From: Escherichia coli
Lineage (GTDB): Bacteria > Pseudomonadota > Gammaproteobacteria > Enterobacterales > Enterobacteriaceae
Length of the DNA stretch: 64,000 nucleotides
Assembly (NCBI RefSeq): GCF_024502345.1
Contig: NZ_JALDNN010000001.1
Strand: one strand, 5' to 3'
Below are positions 3,345-57,622 of this stretch, piece after piece. Positions within the stretch are counted from its first letter, which is position 1. The number at the start of each line of letters is the position of its first letter. Under the pieces are notes generated by a model. The model saw only the letters and a list, made by a program, of their open reading frames with translations. It did no database searches and was not told the DNA's origin. A program made the position numbers and the translations under genes.

Positions 3345-4595
3345 ATGGATGTCATGAGAAGTGTTCTGGGAATGGTGGTATTGCTGACGATTGCGTTTTT
3401 ACTGTCAGTAAACAAGAAGAAGATCAGCCTGCGTACCGTTGGCGCGGCGTTAGTGTTACAGGTCGTGATTGGCGGGATTATGCTTTGGTTACCGCCAGGG
3501 TGTTGGGTCGCTGAAAAAGTCGCTTTTGGCGTGCATAAAGTGATGGCGTACAGCGACGCGGGTAGCGCATTTATCTTCGGTTCGCTGGTCGGGCCGAAAA
3601 TGGACACGCTGTTTGATGGCGCAGGATTTATCTTTGGTTTCAGAGTGTTACCGGCAATTATCTTCGTCACCGCGCTGGTGAGTATTCTCTATTACATCGG
3701 TGTGATGGGGATCTTAATTCGCATTCTCGGCGGTATATTCCAGAAAGCATTAAATATCAGCAAGATCGAGTCATTCGTCGCGGTCACTACCATTTTCCTC
3801 GGGCAAAACGAAATTCCGGCAATCGTCAAACCCTTTATCGATCGTCTGAATCGCAATGAATTATTTACAGCGATTTGTAGTGGCATGGCCTCGATTGCTG
3901 GTTCGACAATGATTGGTTACGCCGCACTGGGCGTACCTGTGGAATATTTGCTGGCGGCATCGTTAATGGCGATCCCAGGCGGAATCTTGTTTGCCCGCCT
4001 GTTAAGCCCGGCTACGGAATCTTCGCAGGTTTCTTTTAATAACCTCTCTTTCACCGAAACACCGCCAAAAAGCATTATTGAAGCCGCCGCGACAGGGGCA
4101 ATGACCGGGCTGAAAATCGCCGCAGGTGTGGCGACAGTAGTGATGGCATTTGTCGCCATCATTGCGTTAATTAACGGTATTATCGGCGGCGTTGGCGGCT
4201 GGTTTGGTTTTGAACATGCCTCGCTGGAGTCCATTTTAGGTTATCTGCTGGCCCCACTGGCGTGGGTAATGGGTGTTGACTGGAGTGATGCGAATCTTGC
4301 CGGGAGTTTGATTGGACAGAAACTGGCAATAAATGAATTTGTCGCTTATCTCAATTTCTCACCCTATCTGCAAACGGCTGGCACTCTGGATGCTAAAACC
4401 GTGGCGATTATTTCCTTCGCGTTGTGCGGTTTCGCTAACTTTGGTTCTATCGGGGTGGTGGTGGGGGCGTTTTCTGCGGTTGCACCACACCGTGCGCCGG
4501 AAATCGCCCAGCTTGGTTTACGCGCGCTGGCGGCGGCGACACTTTCTAACCTGATGAGTGCCACCATTGCCGGGTTCTTTATTGGTTTAGCGTAG
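3345..4595 (+). CDS. nupX: NupC/CNT-family nucleoside transporter
   Basis: 416-aa ORF paralogous to psuT. Position between rihB and yeiI matches K-12 nupX (yeiJ). Confidence 0.9.
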   Translation: MDVMRSVLGMVVLLTIAFLLSVNKKKISLRTVGAALVLQVVIGGIMLWLPPGCWVAEKVAFGVHKVMAYSDAGSAFIFGSLVGPKMDTLFDGAGFIFGFRVLPAIIFVTALVSILYYIGVMGILIRILGGIFQKALNISKIESFVAVTTIFLGQNEIPAIVKPFIDRLNRNELFTAICSGMASIAGSTMIGYAALGVPVEYLLAASLMAIPGGILFARLLSPATESSQVSFNNLSFTETPPKSIIEAAATGAMTGLKIAAGVATVVMAFVAIIALINGIIGGVGGWFGFEHASLESILGYLLAPLAWVMGVDWSDANLAGSLIGQKLAINEFVAYLNFSPYLQTAGTLDAKTVAIISFALCGFANFGSIGVVVGAFSAVAPHRAPEIAQLGLRALAAATLSNLMSATIAGFFIGLA

Positions 4596-20742: not shown

Positions 20743-20920
20743 TGTAGGCCGGATAAGGCGTTCACGCCGCATCCGGCGACAGGAGCCAAATGCCGGATGC
20801 AACGCTGGCGCGTTTTATCCGGCCTACAATGAGTTCAACATACTGATTTGTATGGTTTTGTAGGCCGGATAAGGCGTTCAAGCCGCATCCGGCGACAGGA
20901 ACTAAATGCCGGATGCGTCT
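20743..20920. repeat. BIME: cluster of about four REP units in alternating orientation
   Basis: tgtaggccggataaggcgttcacgccgcatccggcgacagg occurs twice (20743-, 20858-), with inverted partners gccggatgcaacgctggcgcgttttatccggcctaca and atgccggatgcg. The whole unit of about 115 bp is tandemly duplicated. Confidence 0.85.
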
Positions 20921-33304: not shown

Positions 33305-33477
33305 AAAGTTCTTTGACGTTGCATTGCTGGCGTAAATGTCAGCAATGCAGCATTTCCTCACGATTCTCCTTTGACGATCGCACTTTTTGCTCGTTATGAT
33401 GGCGTCGCTAGCCTCAGTAAATCCTTACTCCGGCGGTGCGCAACCCGTGCGCGTGAACCACTATCTGAATGCTCATC

Positions 33478-49293: not shown

Positions 49294-50426
49294 GACTGAA
49301 GATTCTCCGCAAGCCATGATGCCAGTTCGCCCGGTGTCATGGCGGCTATTTGTGCGCCGACATTAACCAGCGCCTGGGCCGTATCGCGGTCATAGCAAGG
49401 CGTTGCTGTGCTATCGAGCGCCGCCAGTCCCAGCACTTTGATGCCGCTCTGGACACACTTTTTCACCTGATGCGTCAGCAATGATGATGAACCCCCTTCG
49501 TAAAAATCGCTCACGAGGATAATGACGCTTTTTGCTGGTTGTTCAATAAGTTGCCGACCATATTCCACGGCACTGGCGATATTGGTCCCGCCGCCCAACT
49601 GTACTTTCATTAATAACTCTACCGGATCGGCAACGTCTGCCGTGAGATCAACGACGCTTGTGTCAAACGCCACCAGATGGGTACGAATGCCGGGTAACTG
49701 CCACAAACAGGCCGCCATCACCGCAGAGTGGATCACCGAGTCCACCATCGATCCGCTTTGATCAACCAGTAAGACCAGTTGCCATTGTTCACTGTGGCGT
49801 TTAATGCGGCTGTTAAAGCGGGGGGATTCGATATACAACTTGCCGTGTTGCGGGTGCCAGTGTTGCAGGTTGGCGCGCAGAGTACTTTTGAAATCAAAGT
49901 TTCGCGCCAGTGGAATAAATGAGCGGCGACGGCGATCGCGGACACCAGAAAAAGCCTGACGAACTTCCTTTGCCAGTCGAGCCATAATTTCTTCAACAAC
50001 CTGGCGCACTATCCGGCGGGCGGCAGCCAGTACTTCGGGGTTCATCAGATGTTTGGTGTGCAAAACGGCGCGTAGCAGACTTTCAGAAGGCTGCATACGT
50101 TCCAGCACGTCGAGATTCGTCACCACATCTTCAATGCCGTAGCGCAGTACGGCATCGCTTTCCAGCCGCTCAATCACCTGTTGCGGAAACAGCGTGTGAA
50201 TACTGTTGATCCACTCAGGGGTGGTGAGATTTGAGCTACCTAATCCACCGGAACGTTCACCACGCTGGAGCCGTTCAGGATCGCGCCCATACAGCCACTC
50301 CAGCGCGTGGTCTATCTGCCGGGCGTTGTCATCCAGCCCACAAAGCGTCGTTTCTGCCGCTTCGCCAAGAATTAATCGCCAGCGTTGTAGCTCACGGGTG
50401 GTCAGAAGATCGTTCAGTTCAGACAT
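49290..50426 (-). CDS. yehP: VWA-domain protein of the yeh cassette
   Basis: ORF track extends to 50654. Trimmed to MSELNDLLTTRELQRW, giving 378 aa. MIDAS motif LLVDQSGSM. The start overlaps the yehM stop by 8 nt. Confidence 0.88.
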   Translation of the reverse strand: MSELNDLLTTRELQRWRLILGEAAETTLCGLDDNARQIDHALEWLYGRDPERLQRGERSGGLGSSNLTTPEWINSIHTLFPQQVIERLESDAVLRYGIEDVVTNLDVLERMQPSESLLRAVLHTKHLMNPEVLAAARRIVRQVVEEIMARLAKEVRQAFSGVRDRRRRSFIPLARNFDFKSTLRANLQHWHPQHGKLYIESPRFNSRIKRHSEQWQLVLLVDQSGSMVDSVIHSAVMAACLWQLPGIRTHLVAFDTSVVDLTADVADPVELLMKVQLGGGTNIASAVEYGRQLIEQPAKSVIILVSDFYEGGSSSLLTHQVKKCVQSGIKVLGLAALDSTATPCYDRDTAQALVNVGAQIAAMTPGELASWLAENLQS

Positions 50427-52698
50427 GGAAAACTCCCCAGTTTTGCAGCGATGCCAGTGCCTGCTGTTCGAGTTGTTGATGATGTGCAATGGCTTGTGGT
50501 GGACAATGCAACGGCATTTGCAGCGCCGAAACGGGAAGTTGCGCCAGTTGATAATGCTCAAGCACCTGATGCGCCAGCGTCCCGCGTTCTCGTGGTGGTA
50601 GCCAGGCCATCGCCGCGCGTAAATCGGGCAGGGCATTGATAAAATTGGCATCACTCAGTTGATTTAAATGACTGCTGAAACCGGCGATAAATGCCGGCTG
50701 ACAGGCCAGTTGATGGCGGGCCAGCGCCAGCAAACCGTGCAGCGCTTCGCCGGATTGTGCCGGGGATAACTGCGCCAGCATCGTCAGCGCCGCTTCGGCA
50801 CTAGCGTTGGGATGTTCCAGACGCATCAGTGCGCCAAGAGCCGCGCCGCGATCCAGCGCCGGGGCATGGATTGCCTGACTGCGTCGCTCCAGTAAGGCTA
50901 CCGCCGCAGAAAGAGAAACGCCGGGTAAATTAACGCCGCTATATAGATCGCGCAGGATATGGCAAAGCGCCTGCCAGCTATGCATGTGAGCGTGAAACTC
51001 CTTTTCATCTGGTCTGCCGTTAGATTCACACAGCCACAGCGTGCGATCGATAGCCGCGCATAACGTCGTTTGTAATATCTGCGCGCCTTGCATACCGCTA
51101 ATTTCATCCAGCCGCCATAAGGCATATAGCACTTCCAGCGCCTGGCCCATTTCGGCAAATTGATTTTCCTGGGCGATTAATAATGTGAGTTGCTCCAGTA
51201 ATTGTTGACTGAAGGACGCCAGACCCGCTAACGCCGCCTGGCTAAGACATGTGGTGATACTGCCGATTCCACCCGCGTCCAGCATATCGGTTTCTAATTT
51301 ATGGCGTGCGGCTTCCTGGAGTGTGGCACCAAAGCAGGCGGCCTCAATCAATGCCGCATGCTGGCTAAGCGGGCGGGTTAATTTCCAGCGTTCTTCACCG
51401 TTGCCTGCAAGTGTCAGTGTGCTTCCCTGCTGGCGTACAATCCCTGGGATCTCCAGTATTGCCAGCCGATGTAACACCTGACTTTGCGCTAGTCCATTGG
51501 GGTTAAAGCGATTTAAGGTAAGCTCCGCCGGAAGAGAGATTGCGGTACGTTCCAGTTCGCAGGTGACATCTTTTGGCAGAGGCGGTTGTGGCGTAGAAGG
51601 GGCAAGTTTACCGAATCCGTCACCCGCTAATGTGTCTATCAACGTTAGCAGAATCGGATCGGTATCGGGATGAATAACGCCGCGATAGCTCCATGGCAAC
51701 GGCGCATTCAGGGATTCTTTAATCAGCGAGCCTGCTAAGGCATCCAGCCAGTCAGTGCGTAACGGTAGTGTATGACCGCGCAACTGTGCCAGCGCCATCG
51801 CATGCAGATGAGCGGCAGCCATATCCGCGGTCGAAGCAGGCAAGTGGTGTTGGCGCAAACGGGTAAGAACCGTTTTTAGCAGTTGTTCTCCCGCCTGCTG
51901 TAAGCCCCACTGCCAGCACCAGCTTTGCCAGACCGGGGCAGGCATTCCTGAAAGGTATCCTGCCAGCACATCAAGGCGCTTTTCACTGTAGGGTGTGAGA
52001 TAACAACCTGTAACGGCATCTGCCAGCGAGGGCAATTCTGGCTTGTTAATGTCCTGCGGACATTCGCGCCACATTTTTGCCAGTGCCGGAGCGTGCCAGC
52101 CACCGCAGACGACTAACACGTCGCCATTGTTTTGCTGCATCGCCCATGCAATCCAGCGGGCCATGAAGGCTTCGCGCTGACGATTGAGAGCATCTCCGGG
52201 GGAATCGCCCCGCAGTTGTGCAAAATAGTGCGCCAGCGCAGAGGGTAATGCAGTTTGCTGGCTTTCATCTTCGAATAAGTGATCCCACAGGGTATCGCTG
52301 TTATCCATGCGGGTGGCACGCAGCAGTAAGGTCTGGCTTTCATCTTGCGTATCAGGCGAATCGTTCTCTTCTTCACTCTGCGCCCAGCAAGGCAAATCGA
52401 TGAAGTAAGTTTATGCCTGAATACGACGTGCGGCTTGTAGCGCCTGCCACTCCGGCGAAAATTCAGCAAATGGCGTCCAGGCACCACGCCCGGGGGCCGC
52501 ACCGTCCTGATACTGGCAATAACTGTAAATAGCTACCGGAAGCTGGTGGGCTAAAAACAGTTCGTCTACCCGGTCATTAAAATCAGCCGGGCCTTCAATC
52601 AACACGTATCGTGGCCGCTGGCTTTCGATTAATGATTTGACCAGCCGGGCGCAGGCCGGGCTATGATGCCGGATGCCGACAATTAACGGCTCGCTCAT
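50419..52698 (-). pseudogene. yehM: yehM interrupted by an in-frame TAA at codon 96
   Basis: A single frame runs from the ATG at 52698 (MSEPLIVGIRHHSPACARL) to the TGA at 50419, 760 codons, matching the remembered 759-aa YehM. The codon at 52411-52413 (plus tta, minus TAA) is a stop: ...AARRIQA*TYFIDLPCWAQSEEE. The ORF track splits it into 52411..52866 and 50419..52395. Confidence 0.8.
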
Positions 52699-52708
52699 GC
52701 ATCTTTCC

Positions 52709-53797
52709 TCACGGCAGGCGGTGGCGGGCTTGATAATAAGCCTGCCAGTGAGCTTCTTTATGTGTGGCGACACGCTGTTCGAAGTAACGGCGCAGACGAG
52801 CGCGATCTTCTTCGTTATCTTTGACGATGGTTCCGGCAATACAGTCCACCAGATCGGCTGGCTCACCTGCGCGATTCGCTAAAAACCAGGCGCGGACGCC
52901 CACAGCGTGGGCCACGTTCACGGCTTCAGCGGTGGACATAATCGCTGTTAGTGTATCCATTGACGTTTTCTTTTCGCCGTTGGCACGCAGATCGCGGAAG
53001 GTGCGGACCAGTAACTCCAGTACCGCGTCAGGCACTTTATGCGGAATACCGCTATGGGCCAGCAAACGCGCCGAAGCACTGGCGACAAGCTCCAGCTCCT
53101 GGGCGAAATCCATAATCGGAAAGACAGTTTCAAAATCGAAGCGACGCTTTAGCGCAGCACTCATTTCATTGACGCCGCGATCGCGGGTATTGGCAGTGGC
53201 AATAATATTAAAGCCTTCTCGCGCATAGAGCTGACTGGCTTCACCAGTGAGTTCCGGCACCGTCATCACCCTGTCAGAAAGCATACCTAACAGACAGTCT
53301 TGCACTTCCAGCGGTGTACGCGTTATCTCTTCAAAACGGACGATTTTGCCGTCGCGCATTCCCTGGTAAAGCGGGGCAGGGACCAGCGCTTCCGTTGATG
53401 GACCATGATTGATAAGCAGGGCGTAGTTCCAGCCGTACTTGATTTGATCTTCGGTAGTAGATGCGCCGCCCTGGATGGTTAACCCGGCATCGCCGCTAAT
53501 AGAGGTTGCCAGTAATTCAGACAGGAGAGATTTTGCGGTGCCAGGTTCCCCCACCAACATCAAACCGCGTCCGGTGGCAAGAGTGACTAACATACGTTCG
53601 ACAGCGGAGGGACTAATCACCACTTTACGGCTAATATTTTGCGCGCTATCGCCAAGGATAAAAGCACGGGCCGCAGGCAAACTTAACTGCCAACCGGGCG
53701 GGCAAGGTGCGTTATCATTTTGTTTTAATTTTGCCAGTTCATCGGCGTATAACACAGCAGCAGGCGGACGCTGCAGATGATTATTCTGCGGTGACAT
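52709..53797 (-). CDS. yehL: MoxR-like AAA+ ATPase of the yeh cassette
   Basis: ORF track 384 aa. Trimmed to MSPQNNHLQRPPAAVLYADEL, giving 362 aa, with aggga as SD. Walker A GEPGTAKS. IIATANTRDRGVNEMSAALKRRF is typical of MoxR/AAA_5. Confidence 0.9.
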   Translation of the reverse strand: MSPQNNHLQRPPAAVLYADELAKLKQNDNAPCPPGWQLSLPAARAFILGDSAQNISRKVVISPSAVERMLVTLATGRGLMLVGEPGTAKSLLSELLATSISGDAGLTIQGGASTTEDQIKYGWNYALLINHGPSTEALVPAPLYQGMRDGKIVRFEEITRTPLEVQDCLLGMLSDRVMTVPELTGEASQLYAREGFNIIATANTRDRGVNEMSAALKRRFDFETVFPIMDFAQELELVASASARLLAHSGIPHKVPDAVLELLVRTFRDLRANGEKKTSMDTLTAIMSTAEAVNVAHAVGVRAWFLANRAGEPADLVDCIAGTIVKDNEEDRARLRRYFEQRVATHKEAHWQAYYQARHRLP

Positions 53798-53905
53798 ATA
53801 TTCATCCCTGAAATGTATTAATGAAATAAACGATATTTTACGCGCAATAAATGTTTGGCGCATTAGTTGTTTGAGCGAAAAATATCTGGAAAGCAGATCA
53901 CAGTA

Positions 53906-53991
53906 AATAAAAAAACCTGCTGGTGAGGCAGGTTCTTTTATTTACTATTTTCAGGCCTAACACCACAGCCTGTGCAACATCGTGTTCCAAC
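53906..53991 (-). ncRNA. orzP: Orz-type antitoxin sRNA (orzP-like), predicted
   Basis: Minus-strand promoter TTGCAA(54021-54026)-17 nt-TATAAT(53998-54003). The predicted 5' end coincides with an 18-nt seed (53974-53991) complementary to the zor leader at 54140-54157. Terminator hairpin 53914-53934 followed by a U-run. Length about 86 nt. Confidence 0.6.
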
Positions 53992-53997
53992 GAACGA

Positions 53998-54048
53998 ATT
54001 ATAACCACGGCTGGACCCCGTTGCAATTAAGATAATGAGATTTATAAT
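53998..54048. promoter_or_regulatory. Divergent orz/zor promoters sharing a palindromic -35 (copy 1)
   Basis: TTGCAA (54021-54026) is its own reverse complement. TATAAT lies 16 nt to the right on the plus strand (54043-54048) and 17 nt to the left on the minus strand (53998-54003). Confidence 0.6.
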
Positions 54049-54229
54049 CCTGACTGTTGGGACGTTGCGCCGGATCGAACCTATTTCAAGTCCTGGCTAC
54101 CGGACGGGGGGTGCTGCAGGTAGTGCCCTGATCCGGAGTGCAACATCGTGGTCCAACATACGTAAACCAGTATCGACAGGCAGTGTAAGGGTAAGGTGCT
54201 GGTGTTGCGCTCCTTAATAAGGAGAGCGG

Positions 54230-54319
54230 ATGGACTCGCTGACACAAAAGTTAACCGTGCTCATTGCTGTACTGGAGCTATTAGTGGCTCTGTTACGGTT
54301 GATTGATTTGTTGAAGTAA
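54230..54319 (+). CDS. zorP: Type I toxin, ZorO/ZorP family (29 aa)
   Basis: Hand translation gives MDSLTQKLTVLIAVLELLVALLRLIDLLK-TAA, with SD aaggag 7 nt upstream. One residue differs from copy 2. Hydrophobic helix typical of type I toxins. Predicted leader about 175 nt. Confidence 0.8.
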   Translation: MDSLTQKLTVLIAVLELLVALLRLIDLLK

Positions 54320-54340
54320 CGGGCAAATTGAAACGCATCT

Positions 54341-54370
54341 AAGGGGGAAAACCGCTTCCCCCTTTAATAA
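54341..54370 (+). terminator. zor copy 1 terminator-like hairpin
   Basis: aaggggga-aaaccgct-tccccctt followed by taataaaat. Confidence 0.4.
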
Positions 54371-54515
54371 AATGATTACTGTTTTTATTAATTCATCATA
54401 TAACTCATTTTTATTTATAAATTCATCGATTTTATATTCAACGCACCATTTGACCGGGATGTGAATATTTATGTTGGGCTATTGGCAAAAAATATCTGGA
54501 AAGTAGATCGCAGAA

Positions 54516-54599
54516 AATAAAAAAACCTGCTGGTGAGGCAGGTTCTTTTATTTACTACAGTGACGCTAACTTGCTGATTGTGCAACATTTCGTACCAAC
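54516..54599 (-). ncRNA. orzO: Orz-type antitoxin sRNA (orzO-like), predicted
   Basis: Minus-strand promoter TTGCAA(54629-54634)-17 nt-TATAAT(54606-54611). 18-nt seed 54582-54599 is complementary (17 Watson-Crick pairs plus 1 G.U) to the zor leader at 54748-54765. Terminator hairpin 54524-54544 followed by a U-run. Confidence 0.6.
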
Positions 54600-54605
54600 G
54601 AATAA

Positions 54606-54656
54606 ATTATATCCATATCCACACTCCATTGCAATTCAGTGAGTGAGATTTATAAT
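54606..54656. promoter_or_regulatory. Divergent orz/zor promoters sharing a palindromic -35 (copy 2)
   Basis: TTGCAA 54629-54634. Plus-strand TATAAT at 54651-54656 (16-nt spacer). Minus-strand TATAAT at 54606-54611 (17-nt spacer). Confidence 0.6.
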
Positions 54657-54837
54657 CCTGCCCGTTGGGAGGTTGTGCCGGATCGGACCAATTTTAAGTC
54701 CTGGCTGCCGGACGGGTGGTGCCGCAGGCGGTGCCCTGATCCGGAGAGCAACGTTTCGTACCAACATACGTAAACCAGTATCAACAGGCAGTGTAAGGGT
54801 AAGGTGCTGGTGTTGCGCTCCTTAATAAGGAGAGCGG

Positions 54838-54927
54838 ATGGACACGCTGACACAAAAGTTAACCGTGCTCATTGCCGTACTGGAGTTATTAGTGGCTCTG
54901 TTACGGTTGATTGATTTGTTGAAGTAA
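54838..54927 (+). CDS. zorO: Type I toxin ZorO-like (29 aa)
   Basis: Hand translation gives MDTLTQKLTVLIAVLELLVALLRLIDLLK-TAA, with SD aaggag. Matches the ZorO peptide of E. coli O157:H7 as I remember it. Confidence 0.8.
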   Translation: MDTLTQKLTVLIAVLELLVALLRLIDLLK

Positions 54928-54948
54928 CGGGCAAATTGAAACGCATCT

Positions 54949-54975
54949 AAGGGGGAATACCGTTTCCCCCTTTAA
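54949..54975 (+). terminator. zor copy 2 terminator-like hairpin
   Basis: aaggggga-ataccgtt-tccccctt followed by taa. Confidence 0.4.
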
Positions 54976-54981
54976 GAAAGC

Positions 54982-55036
54982 TATACTCGTCATACTTCAA
55001 GTTGCATGTGCTGCGACTTTAATTATCTAGAGTATA
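54982..55036. repeat. Mini-ERIC (ERIC termini without the core)
   Basis: tatactcgtcatacttcaagttgcatgtgctgcg + actttaattatctagagtata. The left 34 nt are identical to the left end of the full ERIC at 23437. Abuts the yehK stop codon (55037). Confidence 0.75.
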
Positions 55037-55354
55037 TTATTCTATTTCTTGGTTGAATATATTCTGTAGTTCACGATTAAAAATTGCTATTACAGTTTCA
55101 GGTGATTCACCTCGTAATTTCCGCTCATCAATACACTCATCTCTTATATAAATCAACGCATCATTTATTAGCGGGTCAGCATCTTCTCGATCACGTTGAT
55201 GAAATGTTGGATGTAGCCGGAATCGCTCCAGTCGATAGACGGAACCTGTAAATAATTCAGAGCATTTATGGATCTCAAGTCTGAAGGAAAACGGATCTTC
55301 AGGTACAGGGACCTCATAATCGTAAATAGCAACTAGCTCTTTTTGCACGATCAT
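55037..55354 (-). CDS. yehK: Small uncharacterised protein of the yeh cassette
   Basis: 105-aa ORF with no motif I recognise. AT-rich (about 37-38% GC in two sampled 60-nt lines). Confidence 0.75.
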   Translation of the reverse strand: MIVQKELVAIYDYEVPVPEDPFSFRLEIHKCSELFTGSVYRLERFRLHPTFHQRDREDADPLINDALIYIRDECIDERKLRGESPETVIAIFNRELQNIFNQEIE

Positions 55355-55414: not shown

Positions 55415-57622
55415 TTAATGGAAAATGACGTCAGGTGCGCTTAACGCCTCACTCAAATCAAACACATCAAGTTCGGCAAAAGTGACGGATTTATTGTCAC
55501 GGTACACTCGAAGAGAACGGAAGCTCATTAGCGCTTTGCTATCAACATTGTAGTGGTTAAAACCGGGTGAAAACTTAAGGACCAGCCGGTACTCGCCCAG
55601 GTCATAGACAAATGCATCCTCATAGCCTGACTCCCAGCCTTTGTATCGCATTCCCATAAGCTGCCCAACGGTAGCGGATTTACCTTCCCAGCGAGTCAGG
55701 CTGTTACTGGTTGACTCGTCAGGTGTGAGCAGCACCGTGCACCGCGCCAACTGGCGAAAAGGCGGCATAATTTCGTAATCGGCAAAAAGCTGTGCAAATT
55801 CACTGCGCATTTCTACTGTCATTTCTAACGGGTGGGCAATGCCAATCAGAGCGTCCGCAGGCAGGTCAATTGGCTCATCTTGCGCATTGCAGAACTCCCC
55901 CTCTGCGGCCACACGAAAGGCGTTGAGTAAACAACGCGGTTCATTTGCCGGATAAGCCCCCCATATTAATCGCTGGGTAACCAGACGGGTAAAGGGATGA
56001 TTAACAAACAGAGAATGAAAATCTGCCAGCGACCAGCGTCGGGTGGTACGTAGGGCCGTTTCAAGACGCGGGAGCAGGTTTTTGCTCACCTGAGTGGCAT
56101 CTTTTTTTAGCCCTTTTAGTCGGGCCAGTGCCTCGGGCGCTTTCAGTTGATCGTCATCGGCGCGCAACCGGGGAACGCTTTTCTGGCGAACGTTTTGCTG
56201 ATCAAAGATAACCGGGTTGAGGTTTTCATCGAAGCGAACGGTAAACTGCCGGGGACCAAAATCAAAACTCAACGCCTGCGGATCATCAAGGCCCAGGGTT
56301 GGGACTAATCTGTCCGCTAGCTCTTCCTGGCTTAGCCCGCGATTTTCTGCGACCACCTGAAGAAATTCCGCCGCGTTATCACGTAAGGGGCGGGATTTCG
56401 CCCGTTGCGATATATGATGCAGCTGTATCAGCGCCATATCATTATTCATCAGGGTAAGGATGTTCAGGCCACTGACAGCACGGGCAGATTTGCCTTCTTG
56501 TGGCCAGCCGAGGATCTGTGTCGTTAGATCCCGTGCCGTGCTTTCGTCACCAAAGAGACTTAACGCCAGAAATGCCCAGTTGTCTTTTACGGGGGCACCA
56601 GCTTGTTGCCACGCAGTGAAGAGATCCCAGGCAAAAGCTGCCAGCGTTTGTGGCTGGCAGAACGTTTTCAGTTGTTCCAGCCCGCTATAAAAACGTCCCC
56701 CCTGGGTAAAGCGCAGCATTTCGCCGATAATTTCCAGAGCGTCATCGGTAACAGGTTGATTATTAGTGATAAGGCGCGGCCTGGACCACATTTGCGGATG
56801 CCAGAAATCAGGGGCTTTTGGAATGCGTGCCGGGTAAATCTCTATTGGACTCTGTTTAAGTAATTGTTCCAGGGCAGGCCATAGATCTGTACGCTGCCAA
56901 CGATTGGCTACAGTTTGTAGCAATTCGCCATGCCCATGTTCGTAAAGTAAACGCAGGGCAAGTAATGCAGCTTCGCTTTTATCGCTAGATTTGGTGAAGA
57001 CAAGAGGGATAAGTGCAGTAGCCGTATGTTCCGGCCATTGTAAAATCCACTGGCGAGCCAGATTACGCTGGCCCGCAAAACGCTGCCAGCAGCTTTCCTC
57101 TGCCAGAGAGAGATGCTTACGCAGTCGGAGATCGAATTCGTTATAGGTTTCTGAGCGATAACCATAGCCATAATCCTCGTCCTGATACTGCAATGTCACT
57201 ACCAGAGGATCACTCTCATAACACCGCGCAATAAACTGGCGTGCAATCACCACCTCAGTCGCATATTCCAGCCCCTCTTGTTGGACGATTTCGTCGAGCA
57301 ACTGTTGGCTGTCATTTTGCGCGATACAGGCTAGCGCCGCCATTGTCCGGGGCGGGATTGAGGGTTTGTGTTCGCCGATCAAGTTGATGGCCTGCGTGAT
57401 GGCGGACTGCCACTCCAGTGAAAAATTTTCATAACGCCAGACAATGTTTTTTTTCTTCTCAGCTTTTTGTAGCAATTCATCACCCAGTGTCTGAATGATG
57501 CTTTCAGTGATAACAGGCACTGGTTCGCCCGGCCAATTGCGATGGCTGAGTGGTGTTTTACCATTTTTATATTTCAGTTCCAGTTGGGCGTTATCAGCCA
57601 GCCACGGTAATTCCTTGTCCAT
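55415..57622 (-). CDS. yehI: DUF4132-like protein, paralog of YehH/MolR with the central region missing
   Basis: 735-aa ORF. N-terminal 180 aa and C-terminal about 550 aa align with YehH residues about 110-295 and about 697-1264. The YehH 296-696 equivalent is absent (junction ...SLAEESCWQRFAGQRNLARQWILQWPEH). I remember K-12 YehI as 1210 aa. Confidence 0.8.
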   Translation of the reverse strand: MDKELPWLADNAQLELKYKNGKTPLSHRNWPGEPVPVITESIIQTLGDELLQKAEKKKNIVWRYENFSLEWQSAITQAINLIGEHKPSIPPRTMAALACIAQNDSQQLLDEIVQQEGLEYATEVVIARQFIARCYESDPLVVTLQYQDEDYGYGYRSETYNEFDLRLRKHLSLAEESCWQRFAGQRNLARQWILQWPEHTATALIPLVFTKSSDKSEAALLALRLLYEHGHGELLQTVANRWQRTDLWPALEQLLKQSPIEIYPARIPKAPDFWHPQMWSRPRLITNNQPVTDDALEIIGEMLRFTQGGRFYSGLEQLKTFCQPQTLAAFAWDLFTAWQQAGAPVKDNWAFLALSLFGDESTARDLTTQILGWPQEGKSARAVSGLNILTLMNNDMALIQLHHISQRAKSRPLRDNAAEFLQVVAENRGLSQEELADRLVPTLGLDDPQALSFDFGPRQFTVRFDENLNPVIFDQQNVRQKSVPRLRADDDQLKAPEALARLKGLKKDATQVSKNLLPRLETALRTTRRWSLADFHSLFVNHPFTRLVTQRLIWGAYPANEPRCLLNAFRVAAEGEFCNAQDEPIDLPADALIGIAHPLEMTVEMRSEFAQLFADYEIMPPFRQLARCTVLLTPDESTSNSLTRWEGKSATVGQLMGMRYKGWESGYEDAFVYDLGEYRLVLKFSPGFNHYNVDSKALMSFRSLRVYRDNKSVTFAELDVFDLSEALSAPDVIFH

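Follow-up and report, generated by a model that had tools for sequence, protein, structure and literature searches.

In the 64-kb stretch of Escherichia coli DNA that was analysed in this study (the window), the interval between yehL (52709-53797, minus strand) and yehK (55037-55354, minus strand), the latter being followed by yehI (55415-57622, minus strand), contains two related units at positions 53877-54367 and 54486-54975. Judged by their sequences, unit 1 is zorP/orzP and unit 2 zorO/orzO, the reading order on the plus strand being orzP (leftward), zorP (rightward), a spacer, orzO (leftward) and zorO (rightward), flanked by yehL and by yehK/yehI. Alignment of the two units, in a register of 608-610 bp, revealed 86.8% identity (427 of 492 columns), the best-conserved segment being the ORF (87 of 90 nt), and the AT-rich spacer at 54368-54485 (GC 0.33-0.38) is present once and was not duplicated. 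A preliminary description of this DNA had proposed that two units of approximately 490 bp each carry the same set of five parts, namely a hydrophobic ORF, a promoter on either strand, a short minus-strand RNA and a stretch of complementarity between this RNA and the toxin leader; all five were located in both units at the positions given there.

Each unit encodes a peptide of 29 aa on the plus strand. The zorP ORF (54230-54319), taken from the ORF list as was that of zorO, specifies MDSLTQKLTVLIAVLELLVALLRLIDLLK, which corresponds to the T3S variant of ZorO published as ZorP (PMC11264685) and is identical to the peptide of an O157:H7 strain. The zorO ORF (54838-54927) specifies MDTLTQKLTVLIAVLELLVALLRLIDLLK (MDTLTQK...), which is identical to the synthesized ZorO peptide (PMC6669753), and both peptides possess the hydrophobic core LTVLIAVLELLVALLRLIDLL. 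The sequence AAGGAG is placed 5 nt ahead of the ATG in both ORFs, in agreement with the good Shine-Dalgarno sequence previously ascribed to them. Scans against Pfam and NCBIfam matched neither peptide to a family, which is expected at a length of 29 aa and constitutes no argument against their identity as Zor, and RefSeq/PGAP leaves the interval unannotated in every genome sampled.

A promoter scan of 53700-55200 returned four sites, each agreeing with the consensus at 10 of 12 positions, and these are the very four that had been predicted. In unit 1, the palindromic -35 hexamer TTGCAA (54021-54026) is common to the divergent orzP and zorP promoters, with TATAAT -10 hexamers at 53998-54003 (minus strand, spacer 17) and 54043-54048 (plus strand, spacer 16), respectively. 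In unit 2, the palindromic TTGCAA (54629-54634), which sits inside a 14-nt palindrome (54622-54641), is likewise common to orzO (TATAAT at 54606-54611, minus strand, spacer 17) and zorO (TATAAT at 54651-54656, plus strand, spacer 16). The number of promoter-like sites is at chance level (4 versus 3.6 ± 1.9 in shuffled sequences), and what is non-random is their back-to-back arrangement, which recurs in both units. Table 3 of a 2024 survey (PMC11264685) lists TTGCAA as the -35 hexamer for zor as well as for orz, TATAAT as the -10 and AAGGAG as the ribosome-binding site.

The predicted -10 positions set the +1 at 174 nt 5' of each zor ATG. The zorP 5' untranslated region (UTR; 54056-54229, plus strand), whose length follows by homology from the published 174-nt zorO UTR, carries GGAGTG (54135-54140) and, as its ribosome-binding site, AAGGAG (54219-54224). 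In the zorO 5' UTR (54664-54837, plus strand, 174 nt; UTR and EAP coordinates from PMC5397157), the EAP region (+73 to +102) corresponds to 54736-54765, with GGAGAG at 54743-54748 and AAGGAG at 54827-54832. Minimum-free-energy folding predicts for both leaders that nt 1-13 pair with the flanks of the Orz target and that the ribosome-binding site lies in a hairpin: in zorP the 5' GUUGG would pair with CCAAC of the target and the ribosome-binding site is sequestered, and in full-length zorO the ribosome-binding site is held in a stem, with GUACCAACAUA predicted to be unpaired upon removal of the first 28 nt. Structure probing has been published for the EDL933 zorO mRNA. Downstream of the ORFs, folding and an inverted-repeat search identified terminator-like hairpins, AAGGGGGAAAACCGCTTCCCCCTT followed by TTAATAAAA with a weak T-run in zorP (54341-54364, plus strand) and AAGGGGGAATACCGTTTCCCCCTT in zorO (54949-54972, plus strand); a terminator scan flagged neither, a good U-run being absent from both.

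On the minus strand, Rfam model RF02083 (OrzO-P; gathering score 60 bits) matched at 53909-53984 with 99.9 bits and at 54519-54592 with 88.8 bits, both matches being full-length (model positions 1-76) with E-values of 1e-16 and 2e-14. Transcription start sites in this genome were inferred from published positions, which places the +1 of orzP at G 53991 and that of orzO at G 54599, the resulting sRNA genes being 83 nt (53909-53991) and 81 nt (54519-54599) long; minus-strand RNAs of about 85 nt ending in a hairpin and U-run had been foreseen for both units. The orzP terminator consists of a stem-loop core at 53914-53934 and a U7 run ending at 53909, and that of orzO of a core at 54524-54544 followed by U7, the 3' stem of both RNAs comprising 16 predicted pairs when pairing of the flanking A-run and U-run is counted. 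The predicted OrzP fold has a free energy of -29.1 kcal/mol, and both RNAs have a folding z-score of -3.5. The 3-nt V1 region (+9 to +11), published as locus-specific, reads ACG in orzP and GAA in orzO, in each case matching the published RNA.

The first 18 nt of each Orz RNA are complementary to its own zor leader, 73-90 nt before the ATG, as had been claimed, with 17 of 18 positions forming Watson-Crick pairs in each cognate combination. [quoted passage not shown] According to the published pairing rules, 17 discontinuous pairs are sufficient (PMC11264685). Non-cognate combinations contain five mismatches compared to the single non-Watson-Crick position of cognate ones. Since the two sites form a direct repeat in the DNA, with a distance of 166 nt between them, this complementarity was not among the repeats listed by the inverted-repeat search, and it was therefore examined by mismatch-tolerant pattern searches, in which each Orz 18-mer had exactly one other match in the window at up to three mismatches, namely its cognate leader (chance expectation 0.04-0.07). 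The same pair of OrzP and zorP sequences is also present in O157:H7, in E. whittamii and in Escherichia sp. MOD1-EC7003, and E. whittamii and two other Escherichia species have conserved the zor/orz elements.

We conclude that 53877-54975 is almost certainly the published two-copy chromosomal zor-orz type I toxin-antitoxin locus of E. coli, as the preliminary description had recognised, since the RF02083 matches, peptides, V1 regions, promoters and site all agree with the published family and no feature of the sequence counts against this identity. As in type I systems generally, a hydrophobic peptide of fewer than 60 aa is accompanied by a linked sRNA gene with specific complementarity to the toxin mRNA. 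[quoted passage not shown] The comparison with O157:H7 that had been recommended returned 99.4% nucleotide identity: across 53800-55040 (1,241 nt), strain 8368 exhibits seven single-base differences, at 53890, 54122, 54286 (synonymous in zorP), 54474, 54486 (a 1-nt indel), 54612 (immediately upstream of the orzO -10) and 54783 (+120 of the zorO UTR), none of which alters a pairing site, promoter hexamer, protein sequence or other defined functional element. The locus, its site, promoters, both RNAs, pairing rules and toxicity have thus all been described between 2010 and 2024, including its location and shared -35, which had been singled out as the distinctive points (Fozo 2010; PMC11264685). 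The Northern blots, primer extension, toxicity and rescue assays proposed as checks are also available for the family: sRNAs of approximately 85 nt, mapped transcription start sites and toxicity were reported by Fozo 2010, and OrzO rescue, RNase III dependence, translation inhibition and structure probing have been published for EDL933 zorO.

The family had been thought absent from K-12, which is correct for both zor toxins only, as K-12 retains orzP, both promoters and approximately 34 nt of zor leader. This orz-only locus of MG1655, OrzPmg (mSystems 2024, PMC11264685), lies at the same site and is expressed; it shows no difference from unit 1 between the yehL-proximal end and the zor -10, a stretch that covers orzP and both divergent promoters, and its leftover zor leader has diverged. 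Compared to the present sequence, MG1655 lacks 54090-55017, a segment that takes in the spacer, orzO and zorO together with the greater part of zorP and a portion of a dispersed repeat, and the junction lies in a TTTCAA/TTTAA microhomology. Among 5,426 complete E. coli genomes, orz and its promoters were present in 5,231 and the zor toxin region in 3,399, corresponding to approximately 63% with the zor toxin, 34% with orz only and 4% with neither; this larger sample bears out the published frequencies. No second zor-like locus was found in E. coli, the toxin-region query being without match in K-12-type genomes. Additional matching places per genome are probably due to the short dispersed repeat at 54980-55036.

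Fozo 2010 placed the locus between yehI and yehL, with an intergenic length of 0.3 kb versus 1.2 kb, and reported that E. fergusonii carries it; neither E. fergusonii nor E. albertii was represented among the loci recovered by our YehL-based outgroup search. In outgroup genera only 65-350 nt separate the end of a yehI-like gene from yehL, and neither yehK nor zor/orz is present. As yehI adjoins yehL in these genera, the Escherichia-specific AT-rich filling comprises yehK and zor/orz together, and the notion of an insertion between yehK and yehL is accurate as to where the units lie and too narrow as to the extent of the lineage-specific segment. Pfam scanning of the Yeh neighbours yielded AAA_5, VWA_CoxE, SWIM and DUF4132 and nothing else, and a recognised defence system at the site was discounted, PADLOC returning no matches for YehL, YehP, YehQ, YehI or YehK. 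In this genome yehM contains a premature TAA at codon 96 and yehI has lost approximately 475 codons in frame. A phage origin was rejected on the basis that viral contigs contained no exact match to a 28-mer that covers the hairpin of the ribosome-binding site together with the start codon; a plasmid origin was likewise rejected, full-length matches being mostly to Mb-sized records resembling mislabelled chromosomes and in a few cases to genuine plasmids (180-390 kb), and the remaining plasmid matches being to the dispersed repeat only.

Alternative explanations of the locus differ in how much function they grant it. That non-coding DNA was duplicated in tandem by chance, leaving short ORFs and promoter-like hexamers without function, would accommodate a number of promoter-like sites within shuffled expectation, the lack of a Pfam or NCBIfam match and the empty RefSeq annotation, but it is hardly conceivable in view of the covariance-model E-values (1e-16 and 2e-14), the fact that the ORF is the segment most conserved between the units (87 of 90 nt) and the retention of the elements in E. 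whittamii and two other Escherichia species, and experiments published on near-identical sequence (Northern blots, primer extension, toxicity and rescue) already refute it. It is very improbable, if somewhat less so, that the locus was once functional and has decayed here into a relic as have its mutated yeh neighbours: the premature stop of yehM and the codon loss of yehI do indicate that the neighbourhood is gathering lesions, but neither ORF is disrupted and the encoded peptides are those published as ZorO and ZorP, all four pairs of promoter hexamers are preserved, as is each copy of the ribosome-binding site, the pairing site and the Orz terminator, and the seven substitutions or indels separating it from O157:H7 touch no functional element.

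A further proposal concerns the Orz genes, which might have a second or mainly different task, either as a bidirectional terminator or insulator between yehI-yehK and yehLMPQ or in trans regulation, to which the toxin-antitoxin role would be secondary. The Orz terminator hairpin indeed also scores as a plus-strand terminator, approximately 110 nt upstream of the yehL start with respect to the direction of yeh transcription; orz is far more common than the zor region (5,231 versus 3,399 of the 5,426 genomes, with approximately 34% orz-only), OrzPmg is expressed in MG1655, and in K-12 the residual zor leader has diverged while orzP and both promoters show no change from unit 1. Such a role nevertheless seems unlikely, given that OrzO antitoxin activity has been directly demonstrated, that no alternative Orz target has been demonstrated according to the 2024 authors (PMC11264685) and that orz-only conservation could stem from one recent spreading deletion rather than from selection; it would in any case supplement the toxin-antitoxin explanation and not replace it. 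A similarly low probability is accorded to the evolutionary scenario in which the yehK and zor/orz block split an ancestrally contiguous yehI-yehL pair (a DUF4132 gene and, after it, the gene of a MoxR-type ATPase) and the Orz genes may have gained a second role. Were it true, insulation or tuning of yehLMPQ, or action in trans, would explain why roughly one third of E. coli genomes retain an expressed and perfectly conserved orzP despite the loss of both toxins.

Under the favoured toxin-antitoxin explanation, a single palindromic -35 in each unit serves two back-to-back sigma-70 promoters and the plus-strand transcript comprises a 174-nt leader, the ORF of the hydrophobic 29-aa toxin and a hairpin of the terminator type, both points being read directly from the present sequence. 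The full-length zor mRNA would be translated poorly, as its ribosome-binding site is presumed to lie in a stem and its first 28 or so nt (GUUGG...GUUG) to pair with the EAP region (+73 to +102), and loss of the first 28 nt would open this region, a probable ribosome standby site with GGAG(U/A)G, and permit translation. The divergent Orz RNA of approximately 81-83 nt may then pair through its first 18 nt with +85 to +102 of its own leader, resulting in a translation block and RNase III-dependent decay, and four positions that, as the sequence itself shows, co-vary on both sides between O and P (the 3-nt V1 and one more) prevent cross-talk. Zor, once made, would enter the inner membrane and cause growth arrest. 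Poor translation, 5' processing, Orz repression and membrane toxicity have been published for the near-identical EDL933 sequence and we infer that they hold here; by the same sequence identity, toxicity of Zor and its rescue by the cognate Orz (partly RNase III-dependent), published for EDL933 zorO-orzO and z3290, may be expected of this locus.

In the absence of RefSeq/PGAP annotation and of a Pfam or NCBIfam model for Zor, automatic pipelines will continue to flag this region anew. The outgroup synteny represents a small addition to the question of how divergent type I systems originated. Among these, tisB-istR1 and shoB-ohsC of E. coli resemble zor-orz, according to the literature, in the divergent transcription of toxin gene and antitoxin sRNA, their inactive primary transcript, the need for 5' processing and the proposed standby-site logic, but their toxin and RNA sequences are unrelated to those of zor-orz; tisB is moreover SOS-regulated and single-copy, whereas zor-orz uses one palindromic -35 for both promoters and usually occurs as a tandem duplicate. 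The hok/sok, ldr/rdl and ibs/sib systems similarly combine a small hydrophobic membrane toxin with an sRNA that represses it by pairing with the toxin mRNA, the antitoxin in these cases overlapping the toxin gene with perfect complementarity of at least 60 nt (literature), while Orz does not overlap zor and pairs through 18 nt that repeat the target sequence in the same DNA strand, 166 nt upstream of it.

The two units, at 53877-54367 and 54486-54975, align with 427 identical columns out of 492 (86.8% identity) at a register of 608-610 bp, in keeping with the period of about 609 bp noted in the preliminary description. By segment, identity amounts to 87/90 in the ORF, 46/48 at the 3' end, 156/174 in the leader, 63/83 in the Orz gene and 47/64 in the promoter interval. 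Each unit carries on the plus strand a 29-aa ORF (MDSLTQKLTVLIAVLELLVALLRLIDLLK at 54230-54319 in unit 1; MDTLTQK... at 54838-54927 in unit 2) with AAGGAG located 5 nt 5' of the ATG, in line with the good Shine-Dalgarno sequences proposed. Unit 2 encodes exactly the ZorO peptide that Otsuka et al. synthesized (PMC6669753), and unit 1 encodes the T3S variant, the ZorP of the Fozo laboratory (PMC11264685). The V1 specificity region of Orz, positions +9 to +11 of the sRNA, reads GAA in OrzO and ACG in OrzP (Wen et al. 2014); with Orz +1 set at the G that lies 7 nt 3' of the minus-strand TATAAT (53991 in unit 1, 54599 in unit 2), the sRNA 5' ends read GUUGGAAC-ACG and GUUGGUAC-GAA, respectively. 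Because of the peptide match and the V1 reading, unit 1 is, by sequence, assigned as zorP/orzP and unit 2 as zorO/orzO. In EDL933 the order is yehI - z3289 (zorO) - z3290 (zorP) - yehL, and here too zorO is on the yehK/yehI side, in agreement with that numbering.

Both minus-strand RNAs match the OrzO-P antitoxin family of Rfam (RF02083, gathering score 60) over the whole model, orzP at 53909-53984 with 99.9 bits and orzO at 54519-54592 with 88.8 bits, which together with the peptides and V1 bears out the initial attribution to the ZorO-OrzO/ZorP-OrzP family. Pfam and NCBIfam scans of the two Zor peptides matched no model. Over 53800-55040 (1,241 nt), identity is 99.8% to bovine strain E2865 and 99.4% to O157:H7 strain 8368; none of the seven differences from the latter touches a pairing site or a promoter hexamer or alters a peptide. 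No sampled complete E. coli genome has a RefSeq/PGAP annotation (CDS or ncRNA) for zorO, zorP, orzO or orzP, although an Rfam model of Orz exists.

A promoter scan of 53700-55200, with shuffled sequence as control, returned exactly the four sites predicted, two divergent promoters on each of two palindromic -35 hexamers. TTGCAA at 54021-54026 (orzP/zorP) and at 54629-54634 (orzO/zorO) is used on both strands, with a plus-strand TATAAT at spacer 16 and a minus-strand TATAAT at spacer 17. Shuffled sequence yields 3.6 ± 1.9 such sites, so that a count of 4 is no more than chance would give and the hexamers by themselves are no proof; the promoter evidence is the mirrored layout in both units and its agreement with published mapping. 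The toxin +1 positions, 54056 for zorP and 54664 for zorO, give both toxins a 174-nt leader, equal in length to the published zorO UTR (174 nt).

The proposed RNA of about 85 nt with a strong hairpin and U-run was recovered in both units as a long terminator stem of 16 predicted pairs, including pairing of the flanking A-run and U-run, followed by U7, with a folding z-score of -3.5 in each case. When the first 18 nt of each Orz were searched as DNA against the 64-kb window with up to 3 mismatches (chance expectation 0.04-0.07), the one other match was the respective own leader, 166 nt downstream and with one mismatch. OrzO:zorO would form 17 Watson-Crick pairs and one G:U, and OrzP:zorP 17 pairs and one A.G mismatch at OrzP +7, so that the complementarity described for the Orz 5' end holds at 17/18 in each cognate pair; either non-cognate combination has five mismatches. 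The published rule requires 15 continuous or 17 discontinuous pairs (PMC11264685). Both sequence pairs, the G:U and A.G included, are unchanged in O157:H7, E. whittamii and two other Escherichia sp.; O and P differ at four positions (V1 and one more) on the Orz side and the zor side alike, a co-variation that supports the predicted pairing.

A single -35 per unit serves divergent synthesis of toxin mRNA and antitoxin RNA. In both zor mRNAs the ribosome-binding site lies inside a CUCCUU/AAGGAG hairpin; the EAP region of the zorO leader (+73 to +102) maps by its published coordinates to 54736-54765 (plus strand), and the conserved standby-like motif GGAG(T/A)G (PMC11264685) is present on the plus strand at 54135-54140 (zorP) and 54743-54748 (zorO). 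Minimum free energy folding of either full-length mRNA joins the 5' GUUGG to the CCAAC end of the target, and the GUUG(C/U) that follows to the target's GCAAC end, so that the mRNA 5' end would cover the Orz-site flanks in cis. In the predicted fold without the first 28 nt, GUACCAACAUA is unpaired. For the EDL933 sequence, full-length zorO mRNA is poorly translated, and a transcript shortened by its first 28 nt has an open EAP region and is translated more strongly; OrzO, once bound, inhibits in vitro translation and furthers RNase III-dependent decay, while OrzP is no substitute for OrzO unless V1 is swapped. Induced ZorO and Z3290 are toxic, with rescue by OrzO, and sRNAs of about 85 nt and transcription start sites were mapped by Northern blot and primer extension, respectively. 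Since the relevant sequences are the same, we infer that these results on translation, pairing, toxicity, rescue and transcripts would apply to the present locus.

Both zor mRNAs (5' segments 54056-54073 and 54664-54681) and both Orz RNAs (5' segments 53974-53991 and 54582-54599) begin with GUUGG. In the mRNA this 5' end is predicted to base-pair with the CCAAC/GCAAC flanks bound by Orz; the cis-inhibitory segment therefore seems to imitate the antitoxin in part, a hint that local duplication of the zor 5' end or of its target may have given rise to orz.

The locus lies in the order metG-yehH-yehI-yehK-[zor/orz]-yehLMPQ-yehR-yehS-btsRS, flanked by the minus-strand genes yehL (52709-53797), yehK (55037-55354) and yehI (55415-57622). 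Fozo 2010 placed the repeat family "between yehI and yehL", with an intergenic region of 0.3 kb in MG1655 versus 1.2 kb in EDL933. Counted from yehL, the K-12 yehL-yehK interval (306 bp) matches unit 1 without a difference as far as the zor -10, orzP and the shared -35 included; about 34 nt of diverged leader and a jump to yehK-proximal sequence follow. Relative to the window, K-12 lacks 54090-55017, between TTTCAA and TTTAA. The K-12 site is therefore not empty but in the published orz-only state, its OrzPmg having been seen on a Northern blot (PMC11264685), and the belief that the family is absent from K-12 holds for the toxins alone. A YehL-based search with one genome per species returned 48 loci, among which zor/orz-like DNA and Rfam Orz matches occurred only in Escherichia/Shigella: K-12-like E. 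coli carry orz only, Escherichia sp. E1V33 and MOD1-EC7003 one copy each and E. whittamii two. Among the loci of this search, detection of yehK, which has no Pfam family, was likewise confined to Escherichia/Shigella. Before yehL in the Klebsiella oxytoca group, Intestinirhabdus, Erwinia, Serratia, Stenotrophomonas, Acidovorax and others, yehK and zor/orz are absent, and in outgroup loci (L009-L037, about 3650-4000 in each) the interval from the end of a yehI-like DUF4132 gene to the MoxR-type yehL is about 65-350 nt. GC content is 0.43 for 53798-55036, 0.38 for yehK, 0.54 for yehL and 0.51 for yehI. K-12 and the outgroups supply the comparison proposed at the outset: "inserted" is reasonable for a lineage-specific, AT-rich filling, but the block is yehK plus zor/orz rather than zor/orz alone between yehK and yehL.

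Terminators in both directions had also been proposed. Each Orz hairpin has an A-run on one side and a T-run on the other and a terminator score on the plus strand too, and could consequently end transcription in both directions. For the zor hairpins, the minus strand offers no T-run; an insulator role for the Orz hairpins we only infer.

Zor/orz-like DNA was also present in three E. coli/Shigella flexneri "species representative" chromosomes (ECMA0423, SFBU0723 and SFBU1023; loci L046, L047 and L050) of 75-90% identity. As their YehL, YehK and YehI alignments are fragmented, the low identity fits, as expected, error-rich assemblies and not real divergence. A 264-bp contig of an Alkalicoccobacillus porphyridii assembly (L051, NZ_VLXZ01000257.1, 0.79x coverage) shares 98.7% identity with the yehL-orzP junction of E. 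coli and almost certainly reflects contamination by that species.

Several further features of the neighbouring DNA were recorded. YehI is 735 aa here versus 1,210 aa in K-12 and E2865, about 1,425 bp (475 codons) being gone in frame from the middle; at the junction, near 57075-57089, the two BLAST segments overlap by 15 nt, and the DUF4132 domain (residues 479-663) is kept. The minus-strand yehM (50419-52698) is probably a pseudogene in this genome given a premature TAA at codon 96 (52411-52413; CAA in E2865 and O157:H7 strain 8368), and in the O157:H7 record it is flagged as a pseudogene with another internal stop. Between the zorO terminator and yehK, a dispersed-repeat fragment of about 55 nt (54980-55036) has 90-100% identity to many E. 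coli, Shigella and Salmonella plasmids and a weak, sub-threshold Rfam isrH match; it may resemble an end of the ERIC/IRU element, and probably accounts for several extra "places" per genome in the first BLAST. A 16-nt inverted repeat (53832-53847/53871-53886; 88% complementary, 23-nt gap) between the yehL start codon and the orzP terminator, whose right arm is the start of the duplicated unit, could be a yehL leader hairpin or operator. The zorP-orzO spacer, unduplicated and very AT-rich (GC about 0.33), holds the direct repeat TTTAT(T/A)AATTCATC at 54384-54397 and 54414-54427 (30-nt spacing). Elsewhere in the window, naRNA4 (RF02564, 85.8 bits, 20747-20824) and Peptidase-S11 RNA (RF03039, 72.8 bits, 33393-33473), both on the plus strand, match above their Rfam gathering scores.

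Of 5,426 complete E. coli genomes, 3,399 have the toxin region (54700-54975), at a median of 2 places per genome, and 5,231 have orz with its promoters (53900-54055), giving approximately 63% toxin-bearing, 34% orz-only and 4% with neither; in a 2024 survey the corresponding shares of 2,212 assemblies were 67%, 30% and 3% (PMC11264685). That orz is kept where the toxin is absent, and lies a short way upstream of yehL, raises the idea of a second function for Orz, the only reading with novelty left and one that we consider improbable. The original observation is confirmed and its interpretation supported with minor corrections, and the locus is a known one: the features and tests that the preliminary description singled out as distinctive are all already in print.
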